Positions 21,336 through 27,729 of a stretch of 64,000 nucleotides of DNA are shown in pieces. Numbering within the stretch: the stretch's first letter is position 1; each line of letters starts with the position of its first letter. Source of the DNA: Spirochaetales bacterium (lineage in GTDB: Bacteria; Spirochaetota; Spirochaetia; JABEVK01); assembly GCA_037142615.1 (NCBI GenBank), contig JBAXAI010000004.1:32001-96000 (forward strand), written 5' to 3'. Below the pieces are notes generated by a model. The model searched no databases. It had not been told where the DNA came from and saw only the letters and a program-made list of their open reading frames with translations. Made by a program: the position numbers and the translations under genes.

Positions 21336-21926
21336 CTAGACCACGCTCAGCAGGTACACGAACGTGAACACGCCGACCCAGACAATGTCCAGGAAGTGCC
21401 AGAACAGGCTCAACCGGGACAGGCGTCCCATTACCCCAGGGGTCAGACCCTTGGTCAGCACCTGCGTCATCAGGACGATCATCCAGATTAGGCCGCAACT
21501 GACGTGAAAGCCGTGCGTTCCTACCAGTGTAAAGAAGCCAGACAAGAAGCCGCTGCGGTCCGGTCCGGCACCTTCCGCGATCAGGTGCACGAACTCCGAA
21601 ACTTCCATGGAGATGAACGCGACGCCTAGCGCGAACGTCACCAGCAACCAGCCGAACACGAGGTTCTTTTTGCCTTGGTGCATGGCGACGACGGCCAGTC
21701 CGTAGGTGAAGCTACTGATGAGCAGGAACATTGTCTCGACAAACACGTAAGGAAGGTCGAAGAGTTCTTTGGCGCCTGGCCCGCCAGCTACGTTGTTGCG
21801 GATCACCGCGTAGGTGGCGAACAGGAGGGCAAAGATGATCAAGTCGCTCATCAGGTAAATCCAGAACCCGAAGAGTCTGTTGCCGGAGGTGTGTTCCTCT
21901 CCGTGCGAAGTCACTGCACTACTCAT
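21336..21926 (-). CDS. cyoC: Cytochrome bo3 quinol oxidase subunit III
   Basis: FGFWIYLMSD, FFTLVGTHGFHV, LFWHFLDIVW. Confidence 0.95.
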   Translation of the reverse strand: MSSAVTSHGEEHTSGNRLFGFWIYLMSDLIIFALLFATYAVIRNNVAGGPGAKELFDLPYVFVETMFLLISSFTYGLAVVAMHQGKKNLVFGWLLVTFALGVAFISMEVSEFVHLIAEGAGPDRSGFLSGFFTLVGTHGFHVSCGLIWMIVLMTQVLTKGLTPGVMGRLSRLSLFWHFLDIVWVGVFTFVYLLSVV

Positions 21927-23946
21927 GAGCCTTCCCCTCTGCCTTCACGGTTGTTGGTTTCCAGTCTGGTCCGAACGCCGCCGAAAGCTTGGCGTAGCGT
22001 GCGTCCTCGATTCGCTTCACCTCTTCGGCCGGAATCACGTATTCATTCTCGTCTCGGTTGGCGGCGGCGATCAGCGTCACGATGAAGCCCGCAAAGCCCA
22101 AGATAGCCATCCACCAGATGTACCAGATCATGCCGAAGCCGAAGAAGAACGACGCGATGCCGAGCCACGGGCCATAGGGCGCGTTCTTGGGCATGTGGAT
22201 GTCTTCGTAGGTTTCGGGCCTCTGGTAGGCTGTGCCGGCCTCTTTCTTGGCGGCGAAGTCGTCGAGCTGGGAAACCTCAGGAATGACGGCGAAGTTGTAC
22301 ACGGGGGCCGGAGAATCGATGGACCACTCCAAGGTGCGCCCGTTCCAAGCGTCTCCGGTCTGGTCGGCATTCTTCTTGCGGTCCCTGACGGTCGTGATCA
22401 CCTGCACGGCCATGGCGACGATGCCCAAGGTGATAATGGCCGTACCGATGGCCGCCACAATCAGCAAAGGCTGCCAGGCGGGGTTATCGTAGTGTTCCAG
22501 CCGGCGCGGCATGCCCATCAGGCCCAAAATGTAGAGGGGGAAGAAGGCGAGCGGGAAGCCGATGGCCCAGCCCCAGAACATCAGCTTGCCCCACTTTTCG
22601 TCGAGCTTGAAGCCCATGATCTTGGGGAACCAGTAGATGAGTCCGGCGAAGTACCCGAACAGCGCCCCTGGGATGAGCACGTTGTGGAAGTGCGCTACCA
22701 GGAAGACAGAGTTGTGGACCACGTAGTCGATGGGGGGAACAGCCAGCATGATGCCGGTGGCCCCACCGATGGCAAACAGGACCATGAAGCCCATCGTCCA
22801 GTACATGGGGGTCGAGAAGTGGATGCGCCCCCGGTACATGGTGAACAGCCAGTCGAGGATCTTCACACCCGTGGGGATTCCGATGAGCATGGTGGCGATG
22901 CCGAACGCGATATTCACATCCACCGTGTTGCCCATGGTGAAGAAGTGGTGCAGCCAGACTGTGAACGAAAGGAAGGTGATGACCACCGTGGCCCACACCA
23001 GCGTCGGGTAGCCGAACAGGGTTTTTCGCGAAAAAGTAGCCACCACCTCGGAGAACACGCCAAACGCGGGCAGGATGACGATGTAGACCTCGGGGTGCCC
23101 CCACATCCAGAAGATGTTGTTGTAGAGCATCGAGATGCCACCCATGTCATTGGTGAAGAAGTGCATCCCCAGGTAACGGTCGAGCGACAGAAGGAACAGG
23201 GCCACGGTCAGGGCCGGGAACGACAGGATGATGATGGCCGTGGTGGGCAGCACCGTCCAGGTGAACATTGGCATGCGCATGAACTTGAGGCCCGGGGCCC
23301 GCATGCGAATAATGGTCACGAAGAAGTTGACACCCGTGAGTGTCGTTCCTACCCCTGATATCTGCAGTGCCCATAGCCAGTAGTCGACGCCGGTGCCGGG
23401 ACTGTACTGCTTTTCAAAGAAGGGCGCGATGCCCGTCCAACCTGCCGTCGAGAACTGTCCGATCGAGAGTGACAGCATCACCAGGATCGAGGCAGCGAAC
23501 GTGAGCCAGAAGCTGATTGAGTTCAGCACCGGGAATGCCACGTCGCGGGCACCAATCTGCAGCGGCACCGCGATATTCATCAACCCGAACAGGATGGGCA
23601 TGGCGGCGAAGATGATCATGATGGTGCCGTGCGCCGAGAAAATCTGGGCAAAGTGGTCGGGGTCGAGGTACCCTAGATTGGCCCCTTCGGCGACCGACTG
23701 CTGCGCGCGCATCATGACGGCATCGACACCGCCGCGCACGAACATCAGCAGACCAAGAATCACGTACATGACACCAATCTTCTTGTGGTCGACGGTGGTC
23801 AACCACTCGCGCCAGATGTACTTCCACTTCTTGAAATAGGCAACGATGGCGATCAGGGCGATAACGGCGACCGGCATACCGATCGTGGCGGTCGCAAGGA
23901 AGGGATCGCTCAACGCGAAAGAATCCCAGGTTAGTCTTCCAAACAT
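21919..23946 (-). CDS. cyoB: Cytochrome bo3-type quinol oxidase subunit I
   Basis: TVDHKKIG, quinol-site RGGVD and HFAQ, WGHPEVY, WLHHFF, AHFHN. Confidence 0.96.
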   Translation of the reverse strand: MFGRLTWDSFALSDPFLATATIGMPVAVIALIAIVAYFKKWKYIWREWLTTVDHKKIGVMYVILGLLMFVRGGVDAVMMRAQQSVAEGANLGYLDPDHFAQIFSAHGTIMIIFAAMPILFGLMNIAVPLQIGARDVAFPVLNSISFWLTFAASILVMLSLSIGQFSTAGWTGIAPFFEKQYSPGTGVDYWLWALQISGVGTTLTGVNFFVTIIRMRAPGLKFMRMPMFTWTVLPTTAIIILSFPALTVALFLLSLDRYLGMHFFTNDMGGISMLYNNIFWMWGHPEVYIVILPAFGVFSEVVATFSRKTLFGYPTLVWATVVITFLSFTVWLHHFFTMGNTVDVNIAFGIATMLIGIPTGVKILDWLFTMYRGRIHFSTPMYWTMGFMVLFAIGGATGIMLAVPPIDYVVHNSVFLVAHFHNVLIPGALFGYFAGLIYWFPKIMGFKLDEKWGKLMFWGWAIGFPLAFFPLYILGLMGMPRRLEHYDNPAWQPLLIVAAIGTAIITLGIVAMAVQVITTVRDRKKNADQTGDAWNGRTLEWSIDSPAPVYNFAVIPEVSQLDDFAAKKEAGTAYQRPETYEDIHMPKNAPYGPWLGIASFFFGFGMIWYIWWMAILGFAGFIVTLIAAANRDENEYVIPAEEVKRIEDARYAKLSAAFGPDWKPTTVKAEGKAHE

Positions 23947-23995
23947 CTCAGTGACACTCCTCTATGGTGTACATATGCGGCATTTCGACGGGTGG

Positions 23996-24880
23996 CTACA
24001 TTTTCCCGTCGGTCTTCGTCGCGTCGGCCATCGGTTTCAAGAACTCACCCACAATATGGCCAAACAGGTTGGGCTCCACAGAACCGTACGTGGTGGCCGC
24101 CAAACCAGCCTGGGGCTTGTTCAGCTTGTTGAACTCGTCGGTGCTGAGCGGATTGCCCTTGCTCTTGGCGTCTTGCAACCACGTGGCATAGTCGCCCTTG
24201 GTGACCGCGTCGGCCGCGAAGCTCATCGCGGAGTAGCCGATACCGGTAAACTCCATGTTGTGACCGACATAGTGACCCGGCTTGTCGGAAAGCAGGTTCA
24301 GGTGTGTGACCATGCCAGCCATGACGTACATCTGAGTCCCCAATTCGGGAATGAACATGGACGACATGACGGTGGCCGAAGTCAGGTCAAAGGTCACCGG
24401 CGCTCCGGCGGGAATGACCAGCTTGTTGAGCGAGGCCACTTGCTCGTCGGGGTAAATGAACAGCCAGTTCCAGTCGAGCGACACAACCTGCACATGCACC
24501 GGTTTTTCGGTCGACACGATGGGCTTGTACGGGTCCAAGTCGGTGGTCTTCACCCACGTGAGGTACGAAAGCACCCCAATGATCAGGATGGGAATCAGCC
24601 AGATCAGAACTTCCAGCTTGAGGTTTCCCTCCCAGTGCGGCTTGTAAGTGGCCTTGGTGTTCGTCTCGCGGTAGCGGATCGCAAACCAGATGACCATGAT
24701 GAACACGGGCACGATTATGATCAGCGCCAGGCCAACGGCCATCAGGATAAGGTCACGCTCTTGGGCTGCGATCGGCCCTTGGGGGTCGAGCAACGCGACC
24801 CCTTGGCAAGAACTCGCCATAGCGACAAAAAGCAAGATTCCCAAGCGGGTCAGGAATCGTCCAATCTTCGTCTGTCTCAT
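23996..24880 (-). CDS. cyoA: Quinol oxidase subunit II (lipoprotein, no CuA)
   Basis: Lipobox-like ASSC then LLDPQGPIA, SLDWNWLFIYP, MFIPELGTQMYVMAGM; start set at ATG 24880 after GGGAG. Confidence 0.92.
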   Translation of the reverse strand: MRQTKIGRFLTRLGILLFVAMASSCQGVALLDPQGPIAAQERDLILMAVGLALIIIVPVFIMVIWFAIRYRETNTKATYKPHWEGNLKLEVLIWLIPILIIGVLSYLTWVKTTDLDPYKPIVSTEKPVHVQVVSLDWNWLFIYPDEQVASLNKLVIPAGAPVTFDLTSATVMSSMFIPELGTQMYVMAGMVTHLNLLSDKPGHYVGHNMEFTGIGYSAMSFAADAVTKGDYATWLQDAKSKGNPLSTDEFNKLNKPQAGLAATTYGSVEPNLFGHIVGEFLKPMADATKTDGKM

Positions 24881-24937
24881 CAGGCTCCCCTGGAGCGTGG
24901 ACGTGACCCGAGGATCCACCACACTCTCATAGCAATT

Positions 24938-24999: not shown

Positions 25000-25464
25000 T
25001 TACAAAGCGGCTTCGACCCGGTTCCAGTCGAGAGCGCTGGTGATGCGCAGCACTTCGCCGCCGTTGCCGTCGAGCAGAATCAAGGTGGGGGTGGCCATCA
25101 CGTCGTGCGCCACGGCCGCGTCGAACCCCTCGCTGTTGCTGACGTTGAAGGTGACGCCTTCGAAGGGCAGCAGGGGGAGTTTGTTCTTCAGGGCCGGGCA
25201 CTGGGGGCAGTTGTCCTTGACGAACGCGATCCAGCTGGTGGGCTTGGTGGTTTTTTCGTGGGGCTGGCTGGCGAGGTCTTCGCGGAACGTGACGCGGTGG
25301 TTGTACTCCTCGCGTTTGCCGGCGTTCCAGTTGGCCAGCGACCGGTAGTAGCCCACGATGCGGGTGTAGATTTCGGTGGGATGGTGGCCGGGCTGGGCCG
25401 CCTTGGCTTCGAGTTCAGCGATGCGGGTCGTGATTTCGGTCGTGGTCATTTGGTTGGTGGTCAT
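25000..25464 (-). CDS. Stand-alone NrdD glycyl-radical domain fused to a glutaredoxin/thioredoxin-like CxxC domain (154 aa)
   Basis: EIYTRIVGYYRSLANWNAGKREEYNHR, then FVKDNCPQC..VMATPTLILLD; ATGA overlap with the nrdD stop; SD AGGAG. Confidence 0.88.
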   Translation of the reverse strand: MTTNQMTTTEITTRIAELEAKAAQPGHHPTEIYTRIVGYYRSLANWNAGKREEYNHRVTFREDLASQPHEKTTKPTSWIAFVKDNCPQCPALKNKLPLLPFEGVTFNVSNSEGFDAAVAHDVMATPTLILLDGNGGEVLRITSALDWNRVEAAL

Positions 25465-27542
25465 AGTTGGCTCCTGAGGGTGACGAGTTCGGTTTCGATG
25501 GCGTGTTTTTCTTCGGCTTCGCACTGGGGGCAGCTGAAATGCTCGCCAGCGAGGTAACCGTGGACGGGGCAAATGCTGAACGTGGGGCTGATGGTGAAGT
25601 ACGGGATGCGGTAGTTGCTGCACATGGCTTTCACCAGGCTGCGACACGCCTTCCAATCGCTGATGCGTTCGCCGAGGAACCCGTGGAACACGGTGCCGCC
25701 GGTGTACTTGGTCTGCAGGCTTTCCTGGTGGTCGAGCGCGTCGAAGATGTCGGCCGTGAAGTCGACCGGCAACTGACTGCTGTTGGTGTAGAACGGCTGC
25801 GCCAGCCCGCTGGTGATGATGTCGGGGTGGTGCTTGCGGTCGTGCAGGGCCAGGCGGTAGCTGGTGCTTTCGGCGGGGGTGGCCTCGAGGTTGAACAGGT
25901 CGCCGTAACGCTCCTGGTAGTCCTGCAGGCGCTCGCGCATGTGCACCAGAATCTCTTCGGCAAACTGCTTGCCCTCGGGGGTCTCGATGCCGTGCTCGCG
26001 GCCTAAGAAGTTCTGGCAGGTTTCGTGGATGCCGCTGAGCCCGATGGTGCTGAAGTGGTTGTCGTAGTGCTTCAAGTAGCGCTTGGTGTAGGGGAACAAG
26101 CCCGCGTCGGTGAGGCGGCTGATCACCTTGCGCTTGATGGTGAGGCTCTGCGCAGCGAGGTCCATCAGGTGGTCGAGGCGGTTGTAAAAGTCCAGTTTGT
26201 CGGGCTTTCCACCACGCGAGGCGAGGTAGCCGATGCGCGGCAAGTTGATGGTGACGACGCCGATGCTGCCGGTGAACTCGTCGCTGCCGAACAAACCGCC
26301 GCCTCGCTTGCGCAGTTCGCGTTTGTCGAGCTGCAGGCGGCAGCACATGGAGCGCACGTCGCTGGGGTCGAGGTCGCTGTTGAGGAAGTTCTGGAAGTAC
26401 GGGGTGCCGTACTTGGCGGTCATGTCGAACAGCAGCTGCGCGTTGGGGCTGTCCCACGCGAAGTCGCGGGTGATGTTGTAGGTGGGAATGGGGTAGGCGA
26501 ACCCTCGGCCCTGAGCGTCGCCGGTGATCATCACTTCGAGGAAGGCCTTGTTCACCAGATCCATCTCGGCCTGGCAGTCGCCGTAGGTGTAGTCCAGGTC
26601 CTTGCCACCGACGACGGCCTGGCGGTCCTTGAGGTCGCTGGGAACGGTCCAGTCGAGCGTGATGTTGGTAAACGGGGCCTGGCTGCCCCAACGGCTGGGA
26701 GTGTTGACGCCGTAAATGAAACTCTGCACGGCCTGCAGCACGTCGTCGTAGCTCAGGTGGTCTTCGCGCACGAACGGGGCCAGGTAGGTGTCGAAGCTGC
26801 TGAGCGCCTGCGCGCCGGCCCACTCGTTCTGCATCACGCCCAGAAAGTTGACCATCTGGTTGACCAGCGTGCTCAGGTGCTTGGCAGGGCTGGAGCAGAT
26901 TTTGTCGTTCACGCCGCCCAGGCCTTCGACGATGAGCTGTCGGAGGCTCCAACCGGCGCAGTACCCGCTGAACATGCTCAGGTCGTGCAGGTGAAAGTCG
27001 GCGTTCTGGTGGGCTTCGGCAATGGCCTCGGGGTACACGTTGCGCAGCCAGTAGTTGGCCGTCAGCGTGCCCGAGTTGTGCAGGATGAGGCCGCCCAGGC
27101 TGTAGTTCACGTTGGCGTTTTCTTTGACCCGCCAGTCGGCGCCCGAAAGGTAGCCTTCCATGGTCTCGCCGATGTCGAGCATGAGCTTTTTGCTGTCGCG
27201 CAGGGCCGCGTGGCGCTCGCGGTAGAGGATGAACGCCTTGGCCAGGTCGGCGTGGTTGCCCTCGATGAGCGCGACCTCGATGCGGTCCTGGATGGCTTCG
27301 ATATCGGGGGTGCCGCTCAGACCGTGGAGCACCTGGTTGGTCAGGTGGGTGACGAGGTCTTCATCGACCGCGCCGCGCACGGCGGTGAACGTTTTGCGGA
27401 GCGTCGCCTTAACGCGCTCAGGGTCGAATGGACGAGTCTCTCCGTCACGGGTGACGACGAGCGGAACGGGTCCGGCCGGCGCGATTTCCTGGCGTGTGAA
27501 CCCCAGAAAGTCCTGCCAGACTTCACGAGAACTATTGGACAT
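25461..27542 (-). CDS. nrdD: Anaerobic (class III) ribonucleoside-triphosphate reductase lacking the C-terminal glycyl-radical loop
   Basis: ATP cone VVTRDG, SGYCAGW, SMCCRL, EATPAES, YTNSSQ, Zn site CPVHG..CPQC, then stop. Confidence 0.93.
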   Translation of the reverse strand: MSNSSREVWQDFLGFTRQEIAPAGPVPLVVTRDGETRPFDPERVKATLRKTFTAVRGAVDEDLVTHLTNQVLHGLSGTPDIEAIQDRIEVALIEGNHADLAKAFILYRERHAALRDSKKLMLDIGETMEGYLSGADWRVKENANVNYSLGGLILHNSGTLTANYWLRNVYPEAIAEAHQNADFHLHDLSMFSGYCAGWSLRQLIVEGLGGVNDKICSSPAKHLSTLVNQMVNFLGVMQNEWAGAQALSSFDTYLAPFVREDHLSYDDVLQAVQSFIYGVNTPSRWGSQAPFTNITLDWTVPSDLKDRQAVVGGKDLDYTYGDCQAEMDLVNKAFLEVMITGDAQGRGFAYPIPTYNITRDFAWDSPNAQLLFDMTAKYGTPYFQNFLNSDLDPSDVRSMCCRLQLDKRELRKRGGGLFGSDEFTGSIGVVTINLPRIGYLASRGGKPDKLDFYNRLDHLMDLAAQSLTIKRKVISRLTDAGLFPYTKRYLKHYDNHFSTIGLSGIHETCQNFLGREHGIETPEGKQFAEEILVHMRERLQDYQERYGDLFNLEATPAESTSYRLALHDRKHHPDIITSGLAQPFYTNSSQLPVDFTADIFDALDHQESLQTKYTGGTVFHGFLGERISDWKACRSLVKAMCSNYRIPYFTISPTFSICPVHGYLAGEHFSCPQCEAEEKHAIETELVTLRSQL

Positions 27543-27607: not shown

Positions 27608-27623
27608 CCCCTAGCTGTAGCGT
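27608..27623 (-). promoter_or_regulatory. Possible NrdR box upstream of nrdD
   Basis: ACGCTACAGCTAGGGG resembles the NrdR palindrome (acaCwAtATaTwGtgt) about 65 bp upstream of nrdD; imperfect, and no clear second box. Confidence 0.35.
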
Positions 27624-27729
27624 GTCAGCGGGGTTGTTTAGCAGGGTAAAACACTATGGAGAAGTTGACAAGGGTAAAACTCGGTAAACTTCTGCTGACT
27701 TGGCGTCAGTTCCGTGCGACACTGGTCGA

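Follow-up and report, generated by a model that had tools for sequence, protein, structure and literature searches.

A spirochaetal class III ribonucleotide reductase encoded by two genes, with the glycyl-radical loop on a small thioredoxin-fold protein

Glycyl-radical enzymes are the textbook one-chain carriers of a protein radical, which raises the question of what to make of a locus where this chain is interrupted just ahead of the radical-bearing loop. The locus lies in a stretch of 64,000 nucleotides, here called the window, from a freshwater spirochaete (Spirochaetales bacterium, assembly GCA_037142615.1, contig JBAXAI010000004.1, positions 32,001 to 96,000) whose genome is 96.7% complete. 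It consists of an nrdD gene for the large chain of an anaerobic (class III) ribonucleotide reductase (RNR) and a short open reading frame (ORF) behind it that encodes a radical loop together with a thioredoxin fold. We regard this arrangement as a true and conserved variant of class III RNR, apparently not described before, and ask whether the break is genuine, what would hold the two chains together, and what the small chain may contribute to catalysis.

The nrdD gene occupies window positions 25461..27542 on the minus strand and encodes 693 residues ending in ...ICPVHGYLAGEHFSCPQCEAEEKHAIETELVTLRSQL; its C-terminal end reads ...ICPVHGYLAGEHFSCPQC-EAEEKHAIETELVTLRSQL, with the stop 19 residues past the Cys3His zinc site. 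The small ORF (25000..25464, minus strand) encodes 154 residues with an NrdD-type radical loop around G38, a disordered linker and a thioredoxin fold with CPQC motif and cis-proline. Its ATG (25464-25462) overlaps the TGA of nrdD (25463-25461) as ATGA, and an AGGAG ribosome-binding site can be read 6 nt before this ATG at 25471..25475 (minus strand). A second in-frame ATG (M6, 25449-25447) lacks a Shine-Dalgarno sequence and matches the start of 149-residue relatives, and the small-chain N-terminus may be five residues shorter and begin there; M1 is favoured because it is preceded by AGGAG.

Profile matches locate the break precisely. The large chain covers positions 5-651 of 684 of the NCBIfam model NF006126 (1049 bits, cut-off 548) and positions 1-532 of 562 of Pfam NRDD (PF13597; 580 bits, cut-off 26.2), with the ATP-cone also matched, and residues 27-61 of the small chain cover NF006126 positions 648-682 and NRDD positions 531-562 (31.1 bits). 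Since the large chain ends and the small chain resumes at the same model positions, the break falls exactly between zinc site and glycyl-radical loop. Accordingly located, the RxxGY glycyl-radical motif is missing from the C-terminus of the large chain and forms residues 35-39 of the small one. The original prediction, made from the DNA alone, had NrdD end soon after its zinc site with the loop on a separate 154-residue ORF that has its own AGGAG and an ATGA overlap, as the ORF calls and profile matches bear out; it also had the small protein carry both the loop and a CxxC thioredoxin fold, in agreement with the matches to NrdD models and thioredoxin families.

From profiles, alignment and a structure model, the small chain can be divided into a zipper helix, the radical loop, a linker and a thioredoxin-fold domain. 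The loop TEIYTRIVGYYRSLANWNAGKREEYNHR (residues 30-57, 25294..25377, minus strand, with G38 at 25351-25353) corresponds to the C-terminal ~33 positions of the NrdD models, and 19 of its residues are invariant among 33 diverse small-chain sequences, i.e., T30, E31, Y33, R35-I36-V37-G38-Y39-Y40-R41-S42, N45-W46-N47, G49-K50-R51, E53 and R57. It is matched by NrdD models only; the Gly_radical family of the pyruvate formate-lyase (PFL) type gave no match in the small chain at E<=0.1. The following linker (residues 60-76, 25237..25287, minus strand) is variable, with ~15 to 60 residues among relatives, and predicted to be disordered (predicted local distance difference test, pLDDT, ~51-66). Behind it, residues 77-154 (25003..25236, minus strand) form the thioredoxin-fold domain according to profiles, model and Foldseek, with C86-P-Q-C89 at 25198-25209 and the cis-proline P126; C86, C89, P90, G113 and P126, i.e., the CxxC and the cis-proline loop, are invariant in the same 33 sequences.

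The AlphaFold model of the small chain has an overall pLDDT of 82.5, with helices at residues 8-23 and 48-59, disorder at 60-76 and a beta-alpha-beta-alpha-beta-beta-alpha arrangement at 77-153 with pLDDT >90. The radical loop is modelled with low confidence in the lone chain, as expected because the loop needs its barrel. Thioredoxins were the top Foldseek matches to the fold (probability 1.0), and the nearest solved structures by profile are the protein disulfide oxidoreductase of P. furiosus (1a8l, 9.5e-6), the small archaeal thioredoxins 3zij/1fo5 and, weakly, NrdH. The CxxC at the N-terminus of helix 1, the cis-proline loop and the full thioredoxin-type fold are all present, and precomputed Pfam assignments list PF13098 for many relatives of the small chain.

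Is the break genuine? Small-protein matches were found in 29 of the 41 genomes searched (the window's own and 40 relatives), and 10 of the 11 relatives' loci that were fetched, all from the same class, show a truncated nrdD followed by a frame of 148-226 codons with radical loop and CxxC; at L004, the small ORF is visible and no long nrdD frame was printed in the locus scan. A broader scan with one genome per species (genome_contigs) found 596 loci. The best 80, ranked by likeness to the split query, include 69 split and 1 fused locus besides 10 without a detected nrdD by the small ORF (mostly at contig ends), though because of this ranking 69 of 80 cannot be taken as an unbiased estimate of how split and fused forms compare in frequency. 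All but two of the 80 are labelled Spirochaetota, the others being a Marinamargulisbacteria metagenome-assembled genome (MAG) and one labelled 'Caenarcanum'. Spirochaetes commonly have this layout, and its break is kept in relatives as distant as 35-45% identity, so that its conservation goes far beyond chance. Beyond these loci, a word-indexed search returned 109 small homologues of 87-264 residues and an exhaustive one 153 representatives of 50%-identity clusters at E<=1e-30, of which the best 150 all measure 125-320 residues.

The split would be only apparent if a programmed frameshift or read-through joined both ORFs into one fused product, or if it reflected an assembly error or a fresh pseudogene. 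At the ATGA overlap a -1 shift would suffice for fusion, and in 15 of the 69 split loci both ORFs share one frame with a stop between them. Across these 69 loci, however, the small ORF lies in frame 0 relative to nrdD in 15, +1 in 25 and +2 in 29, nrdD stops with TAA in 35, TGA in 28 and TAG in 6, and the gap between the two ranges from -26 to +346 nt, a spread that neither one recoding mechanism nor one error would explain. In each small ORF a separate start lies ~30 residues ahead of the loop, both ORFs are conserved over deep divergence, and the extra helices described below are confined to split forms. In addition, a contig from an independent study (run X5) spans the junction over 25195-25510 with 0 differences. 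Another contig (run X10) is from a relative whose start region is 15 nt shorter, in frame, and no contig of runs X2 and X8 spans the junction. Together, the spread of frames, stops and gaps and the identical independent junction rule out sequencing error, pseudogene and recoding, to which we give a negligible chance, and the small and large genes are almost certainly two real genes giving two chains. Two of the checks proposed with the original prediction concern the junction in raw reads and split versus fused forms in relatives. No fusing indel was seen in the independent assembly, and 69 of the 80 loci most like the split query are split.

If there are two chains, what would hold them together? 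Split forms carry ~46 extra residues at the break that form two heptad helices, with ~19-39 additional residues past the zinc CxxC of the large chain and ~29 before the TEIY of the small chain. In the window, these helices comprise large-chain residues 675-693 (25464..25520, minus strand; core I682, L686, L689, L693) and small-chain residues 8-23 (25396..25443, minus strand; core I11, I15, L18, A22). Over 78 locus pairs of large-chain tail and small-chain N-terminus, hydrophobic residues occupy tail positions +8, +12 and +15 (99-100%) and +22 (69%) as well as small-chain positions -22, -19, -15, -12, -8 and -5 (64-100%); the remaining positions of both helices are mostly charged. These charges covary between the chains. 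Tail position +16 and small-chain position -11 are correlated with r = -0.92 and have opposite signs in 50 of the 50 rows where both are charged, and for +11 and -16 (r = -0.79) the charges are opposite in 47 of 51, compared to no complementarity in control pairs of a parallel register (19 of 52 and 18 of 47). Ionic pairs of an antiparallel coiled coil are formed between e and e' and between g and g' positions, which is where the covarying pairs fall, in a register that places +n opposite -n.

A model of the complex points the same way, with a score of 0.84 compared to 0.00 for the best of three controls; of solved complexes 58 of 80 came up to that mark, as did 2 of 110 mismatched pairs. Its runs share at least 83% of contacts with a partner pLDDT of at least 81. 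In this model, residues 674-693 of the tail contact residues 6-22 of the small chain, whose residues 25-42 lie inside the barrel against 654-660, 667-671, 346-352 and 556-562. Small-chain residues 28-30 are placed next to C670/C671, which sets the antiparallel sense of the helices. A parallel coiled coil, first suggested by the equal offset of both covarying pairs, is ruled out by the e-e' and g-g' positions of these pairs, the non-complementary g-e' controls and the placement of residues 28-30 beside C670-C671. Charge covariation and complex model thus point to an antiparallel coiled-coil clamp between the chains, which by its modelled geometry would be a helical hairpin cut at its tip. The helix pair at the break and the evidence for the antiparallel clamp are new here.

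The rest of the machinery stays on the large chain (25461..27542, minus strand), an ATP-cone and class III RNR barrel without the radical loop by its NF006126 match. Its closest solved structure is NrdD of T. maritima (4coi, E 1e-36). The ATP-cone comprises residues 28-112 (27207..27461, minus strand; PF03477, E 1.5e-14), and the finger loop carries the cysteine pair C400-C401 in an RSMCCRL motif (26340..26345, minus strand). Invariant in 39 large chains are C195, C400, C401, R402, the glutamates E553 and E558 of the NLEATPAES motif, and C658, H661, C671 and C674. The last four form the putative zinc site C658-x2-H661...C671-x2-C674 (25521..25571, minus strand), of Cys3His type unlike Cys4, for which metal binding would be expected from the family. 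Since this site is invariant on the large chain, the zinc ribbon has remained part of the barrel chain, and it is the radical loop alone that has moved. In the accessible description of the solved P. copri NrdD, the glycyl-radical domain (GRD) consists of the zinc site, then a buried loop and then a surface tail, and is highly mobile. The break in the window cuts this domain between the first two of these elements.

The finger loop also bears on the reductant. The original prediction had assigned the enzyme to the thioredoxin-dependent NrdD subtype on account of a vicinal double cysteine and the PAES glutamate. The double cysteine and the NLEATPAES motif are indeed present, and either E553 or E558 may be the active-site glutamate; yet the loop keeps its methionine, with MCCR in all 83 barrel cores compared, including split forms without a thioredoxin domain. 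According to the part of Burnim et al. 2022 available to us, an enzyme with a methionine-retaining double-cysteine loop of this kind has what it takes to use either formate or thioredoxin, which leaves the subtype unproven by sequence. For the same reason the motif does not mark the thioredoxin-bearing clade, as RSMCCRL occurs in 83 of 83 cores.

How would such an enzyme work? The large chain would supply the ATP-cone, the Cys3His zinc ribbon and the catalytic barrel, whose finger loop carries C400/C401, and the small chain would supply the radical loop with G38, inserting it into the barrel as the C-terminus of a one-chain NrdD does. An antiparallel two-helix coiled coil, formed by the large chain's final ~19 residues and the small chain's residues ~8-23, would clamp the chains, as model and covariation suggest. 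NrdG would put the radical on G38 of the small chain, from where it would move to the finger-loop cysteine, and the disulfide formed in turnover would be re-reduced by the C86/C89 (CPQC) domain on its flexible linker behind the loop, which TrxB in turn would recharge. We consider it likely that the locus encodes an obligate two-chain class III RNR built in this way, i.e., with a helix clamp, the loop in the barrel, a radical made by NrdG and a tethered thioredoxin reductant fed by thioredoxin reductase. Of its parts, that of the small chain as an obligate radical subunit, kept in place by the helices, is very probable, and the role of the thioredoxin domain as turnover reductant is rather favoured than firmly indicated. 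The partners are encoded elsewhere in the genome, with NrdG on contig C31 (TIGR02495, 150.4 bits, above the cut-off of 131), TrxB above its cut-off on contig C3 and NrdR on contig C24; a single class I/II large subunit is found on contig C5.

A small stand-alone protein with a radical loop recalls GrcA/YfiD of E. coli and Y06I of phage T4, which, in the accessible part of PMC13450708, are activated by PFL's own activase and insert into the large barrel subunit. The analogy is close, and the small protein might likewise be a spare that rescues an oxygen-cleaved complete NrdD. This is highly improbable in the present case and rejected for this genome, where the large chain lacks the loop and where the 96.7% covered has a single NRDD locus and a single radical loop of the NrdD type, leaving nothing complete to rescue. 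Furthermore, the small gene is translationally coupled to nrdD. It exists in a single copy with no intact NrdD elsewhere in the genome, which argues for an obligate subunit rather than a GrcA-like spare. Whether this subunit is exchangeable, as the original prediction proposed, is another matter. The enzyme might be built like class I RNRs, with a large catalytic chain and a separate, consumable radical subunit that is charged off the enzyme by NrdG, docks through the zipper and brings its own thioredoxin, such that after oxygen cleavage at G38 only the 17-kDa chain and not the 78-kDa barrel would have to be replaced. We regard this as a tentative possibility, since the single copy, the translational coupling and the zipper agree with a fixed subunit no less than with an exchangeable one, and the conserved coiled-coil clamp, as deduced from alignment and model, argues for a stable over a freely exchanging complex. 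The fully fused NrdD-GRD-thioredoxin forms in related spirochaetes described below bear on this idea as well.

The thioredoxin fold itself could have another role than turnover, with formate or free thioredoxin reducing the enzyme and the tethered CxxC sensing or gating redox state, shielding the loop, or aiding activation or assembly. We think this unlikely, though several observations that speak for it, or that otherwise weigh against the obligate two-chain enzyme with a tethered reductant, have to be set out together. The MCCR methionine, a residue associated with formate chemistry, is kept in all compared cores, such that formate could still be the reductant, in line with the equipment for either formate or thioredoxin in the accessible text of Burnim et al. 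2022. The match of small-chain residues 79-154 to Thioredoxin_2 (24.9 bits) stays slightly below the cut-off of 27, as does that to Thioredoxin_3 (20.1 bits, cut-off 24.8). In the complex model, the thioredoxin domain lies outside the confident contacts, an outcome that tells neither for nor against binding, and its docking on the active site would be putative; the loop-in-barrel part of the model's pass may reflect likeness to solved one-chain NrdDs, and its calibration holds roughly, as the alignments were self-built. On well-supported branches the charge covariation comprises 3 independent contrasts; these agree in direction, but with so few of them a sign test cannot become significant. 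No thioredoxin reductase or other redox gene was conserved beside the operon among 150 of 159 neighbour ORFs examined at 40 loci, and none of the RNA runs searched for the stretch was listed as containing it.

Some lineages also manage without the domain. In one genus of a Treponema-like family (f31; L110-L112, three complete ~2.8-Mb genomes), the small ORF of ~95 residues retains zipper helix and loop, and the thioredoxin domain is reduced to a CDCPP/CNCDCPP remnant, which makes it dispensable there; a same-strand NrdD motif could not be detected in the 5-kb locus of these genomes. Split forms of other Spirochaetota classes likewise have the same MCCR loop and no thioredoxin domain. Against a merely accessory role stands the invariance of C86, C89, P90 and the cis-proline P126 in 33 sequences across a linker of variable length, a pattern characteristic of redox-active thioredoxins. 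Split and one-chain forms alike also retain the fusion, and a redoxin fused to a class I radical-generating subunit serves as its reductant in the part of PMC6187632 available to us. The obligate two-chain enzyme with a tethered thioredoxin reductant hence remains the reading that we prefer.

How does this enzyme relate to known systems? It shares the barrel family, the double-cysteine finger loop, the zinc site, the loop type and NrdG with the one-chain NrdD enzymes of Neisseria bacilliformis and Thermotoga maritima (4coi/4u3e). These carry the loop at their own C-terminus and use a separate thioredoxin, whereas here loop and redoxin share a second chain and a clamp of ~46 residues is added. 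The biochemistry of these enzymes is reportedly that of the thioredoxin-dependent NrdD subtype (NrdD2), which Wei et al. are said to have described in 2014. By its sequence, the window's enzyme would work like a thioredoxin-type NrdD, yet it departs from the family-defining placement of the radical glycine on the same chain. The likeness to GrcA/YfiD and Y06I is that of a small stand-alone protein with a radical loop. GrcA, however, is an optional spare for a complete PFL once oxygen has cleaved it and has a PFL-type domain, whereas the small chain described here is NrdD-type, is the sole source of the loop and bears a zipper helix and a thioredoxin domain.

Outside class III, the NrdB of Facklamia ignava has a redoxin on the radical-providing small subunit as RNR reductant (PMC6187632, accessible part), as we propose here; it belongs to class I and is of the metal/tyrosyl type, with an N-terminal glutaredoxin followed by an ATP-cone and no glycyl radical. 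A catalytic protein in two polypeptides is also known from NrdJa/NrdJb of Pseudomonas aeruginosa (PMC4520616, accessible part), though this is a class II enzyme dependent on adenosylcobalamin whose split does not detach a radical-bearing loop and that has no fused redoxin. A review of June 2026 states, in its accessible part, that spare-part proteins are known for formate lyases only and that their existence elsewhere is undetermined, and it sets class III RNRs aside (PMC13450708). No paper on split or thioredoxin-fused NrdD was found in the accessible literature, including RNR phylogeny and database papers, whose supplementary tables could still mention such forms.

What makes the arrangement worth attention is that in a whole bacterial class the radical loop of an enzyme essential for making DNA precursors sits on a chain of its own, with a leucine-zipper-like clamp and a tethered reductant. 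This offers a testable system for activase access to the glycine, for repair of oxygen damage via subunit exchange, and for the electron route to thioredoxin-type class III RNRs. Should the small chain indeed be a consumable radical subunit, it would be the first case, among all glycyl-radical enzymes, of an obligate radical subunit that is a separate chain, and would answer whether spare-part logic exists beyond pyruvate formate-lyase. In a more practical sense it matters for annotation, as the small genes bear names as varied as thioredoxin, glutaredoxin, hypothetical protein or RNR, and the large ones give the impression of being truncated.

How did the split arise? Fused NrdD-GRD-linker-thioredoxin proteins of 810-846 residues exist in related spirochaetes (P0113-P0116, L087, L100-L105). 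They share the nrdR/nrdG neighbours of split relatives and are similar to the window's enzyme, with 69% identity in the barrel (P0113) and 41% over loop, linker and thioredoxin domain. Unlike the window's two chains with helices, they are one chain in which TE[IV]Y[ST]RI[VT]GYY starts 4 residues after the zinc CxxC and both heptad helices are missing. A quick maximum-likelihood tree was calculated from 83 barrel cores, with NrdDs from other classes of Spirochaetota as the root; it unites the thioredoxin-bearing sequences in one clade with a support of 99 in the Shimodaira-Hasegawa-like approximate likelihood ratio test (SH-aLRT). The 11 fused forms with thioredoxin domain are nested within 62 split forms, requiring 2 changes (1 is not excluded) with a support of 82-93 and an outgroup-dependent root. 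One-chain thioredoxin forms would therefore be re-fusions that lost the helices, and the tree hints that the split is ancestral in this clade and that these forms are secondary.

A second, independent split at the same site is found in other Spirochaetota classes (L113-L117, L119), where large chains end in ...CPxPHTE..L..YGKY.. and are followed by frames of 58-70 codons with the radical loop only and no thioredoxin domain. Unsplit outgroup relatives (L107-L109) carry an insert of ~45 residues at the split site, and a survey of the phylum that included all forms found matches in 199 of 401 genomes, several of them with 2-4 loop matches. On this comparison, the junction of zinc ribbon and radical loop is evidently a recurrent fission point. 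Two oddly labelled genomes belong here as well. L024, a cave MAG labelled Borreliella garinii, groups with free-living Spirochaetales, and L040, a MAG labelled Marinamargulisbacteria, has the split operon and lies at the base of the thioredoxin-bearing clade; both labels could be due to mis-binning or gene transfer.

In relatives, the usual operon is nrdR-nrdD-small-nrdG, with an NrdG-like gene directly 3' of the small ORF at 79 of 91 related loci and NrdR directly 5' at 34 of the 40 loci of the neighbour survey. The small clade that includes the window (L002-L007, L020-L024) has neither nrdR nor nrdG at the locus. Upstream of nrdD, two palindrome-like blocks, ATAGTGTTTTACCCT and ACACGCTACAGCTAGGG (27609..27657, minus strand), are conserved in 4 of 4 aligned upstream regions, where relatives have the versions TAGTGTTATACACT and ACACTATGGGTAGTG, and a near-repeat GTTTTACCCT lies at 27680-27671. 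These blocks resemble what we take to be the NrdR box consensus and are possibly a pair of NrdR boxes. A gene for a GAF histidine kinase lies upstream of nrdD in divergent orientation.

The small gene is directly followed, on its own strand, by cyoA, cyoB and cyoC of a quinol oxidase with a COX_ARM motif (window 21336-24886, minus strand), i.e., genes for an oxygen-consuming oxidase right behind the gene of an oxygen-sensitive enzyme. The original prediction had noted that a replaceable radical subunit would suit an organism with two oxidases. The adjacent cyoABC agrees with this, but none of the loci examined in relatives showed such a neighbourhood, and the link is circumstantial.

Several further genes adjoin these operons. 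On contig C31, an ORF of 387 residues resembling oxidoreductases of the flavin adenine dinucleotide (FAD) type lies directly upstream of nrdG on the same strand (L013 2338-3501); it has a CRCE...C..RFC motif near its C-terminus, and the TrxB model weakly matches C31 at the corresponding place (58 bits). At 4 of 40 loci (L026, L043, L054, L088), a gene with HD plus HD_assoc domains, similar to dGTPase-like deoxynucleoside triphosphate (dNTP) triphosphohydrolases, adjoins the RNR operon downstream of nrdG on the opposite strand, and this neighbour may link dNTP synthesis with dNTP degradation. Finally, in an uncultured Treponema sp. MAG (L078), the small GRD-thioredoxin gene and nrdG stand behind an unrelated gene with an HD/KH-like tail and without nrdD upstream; the genes of small chain and activase travel apart from that of the large chain in some genomes.

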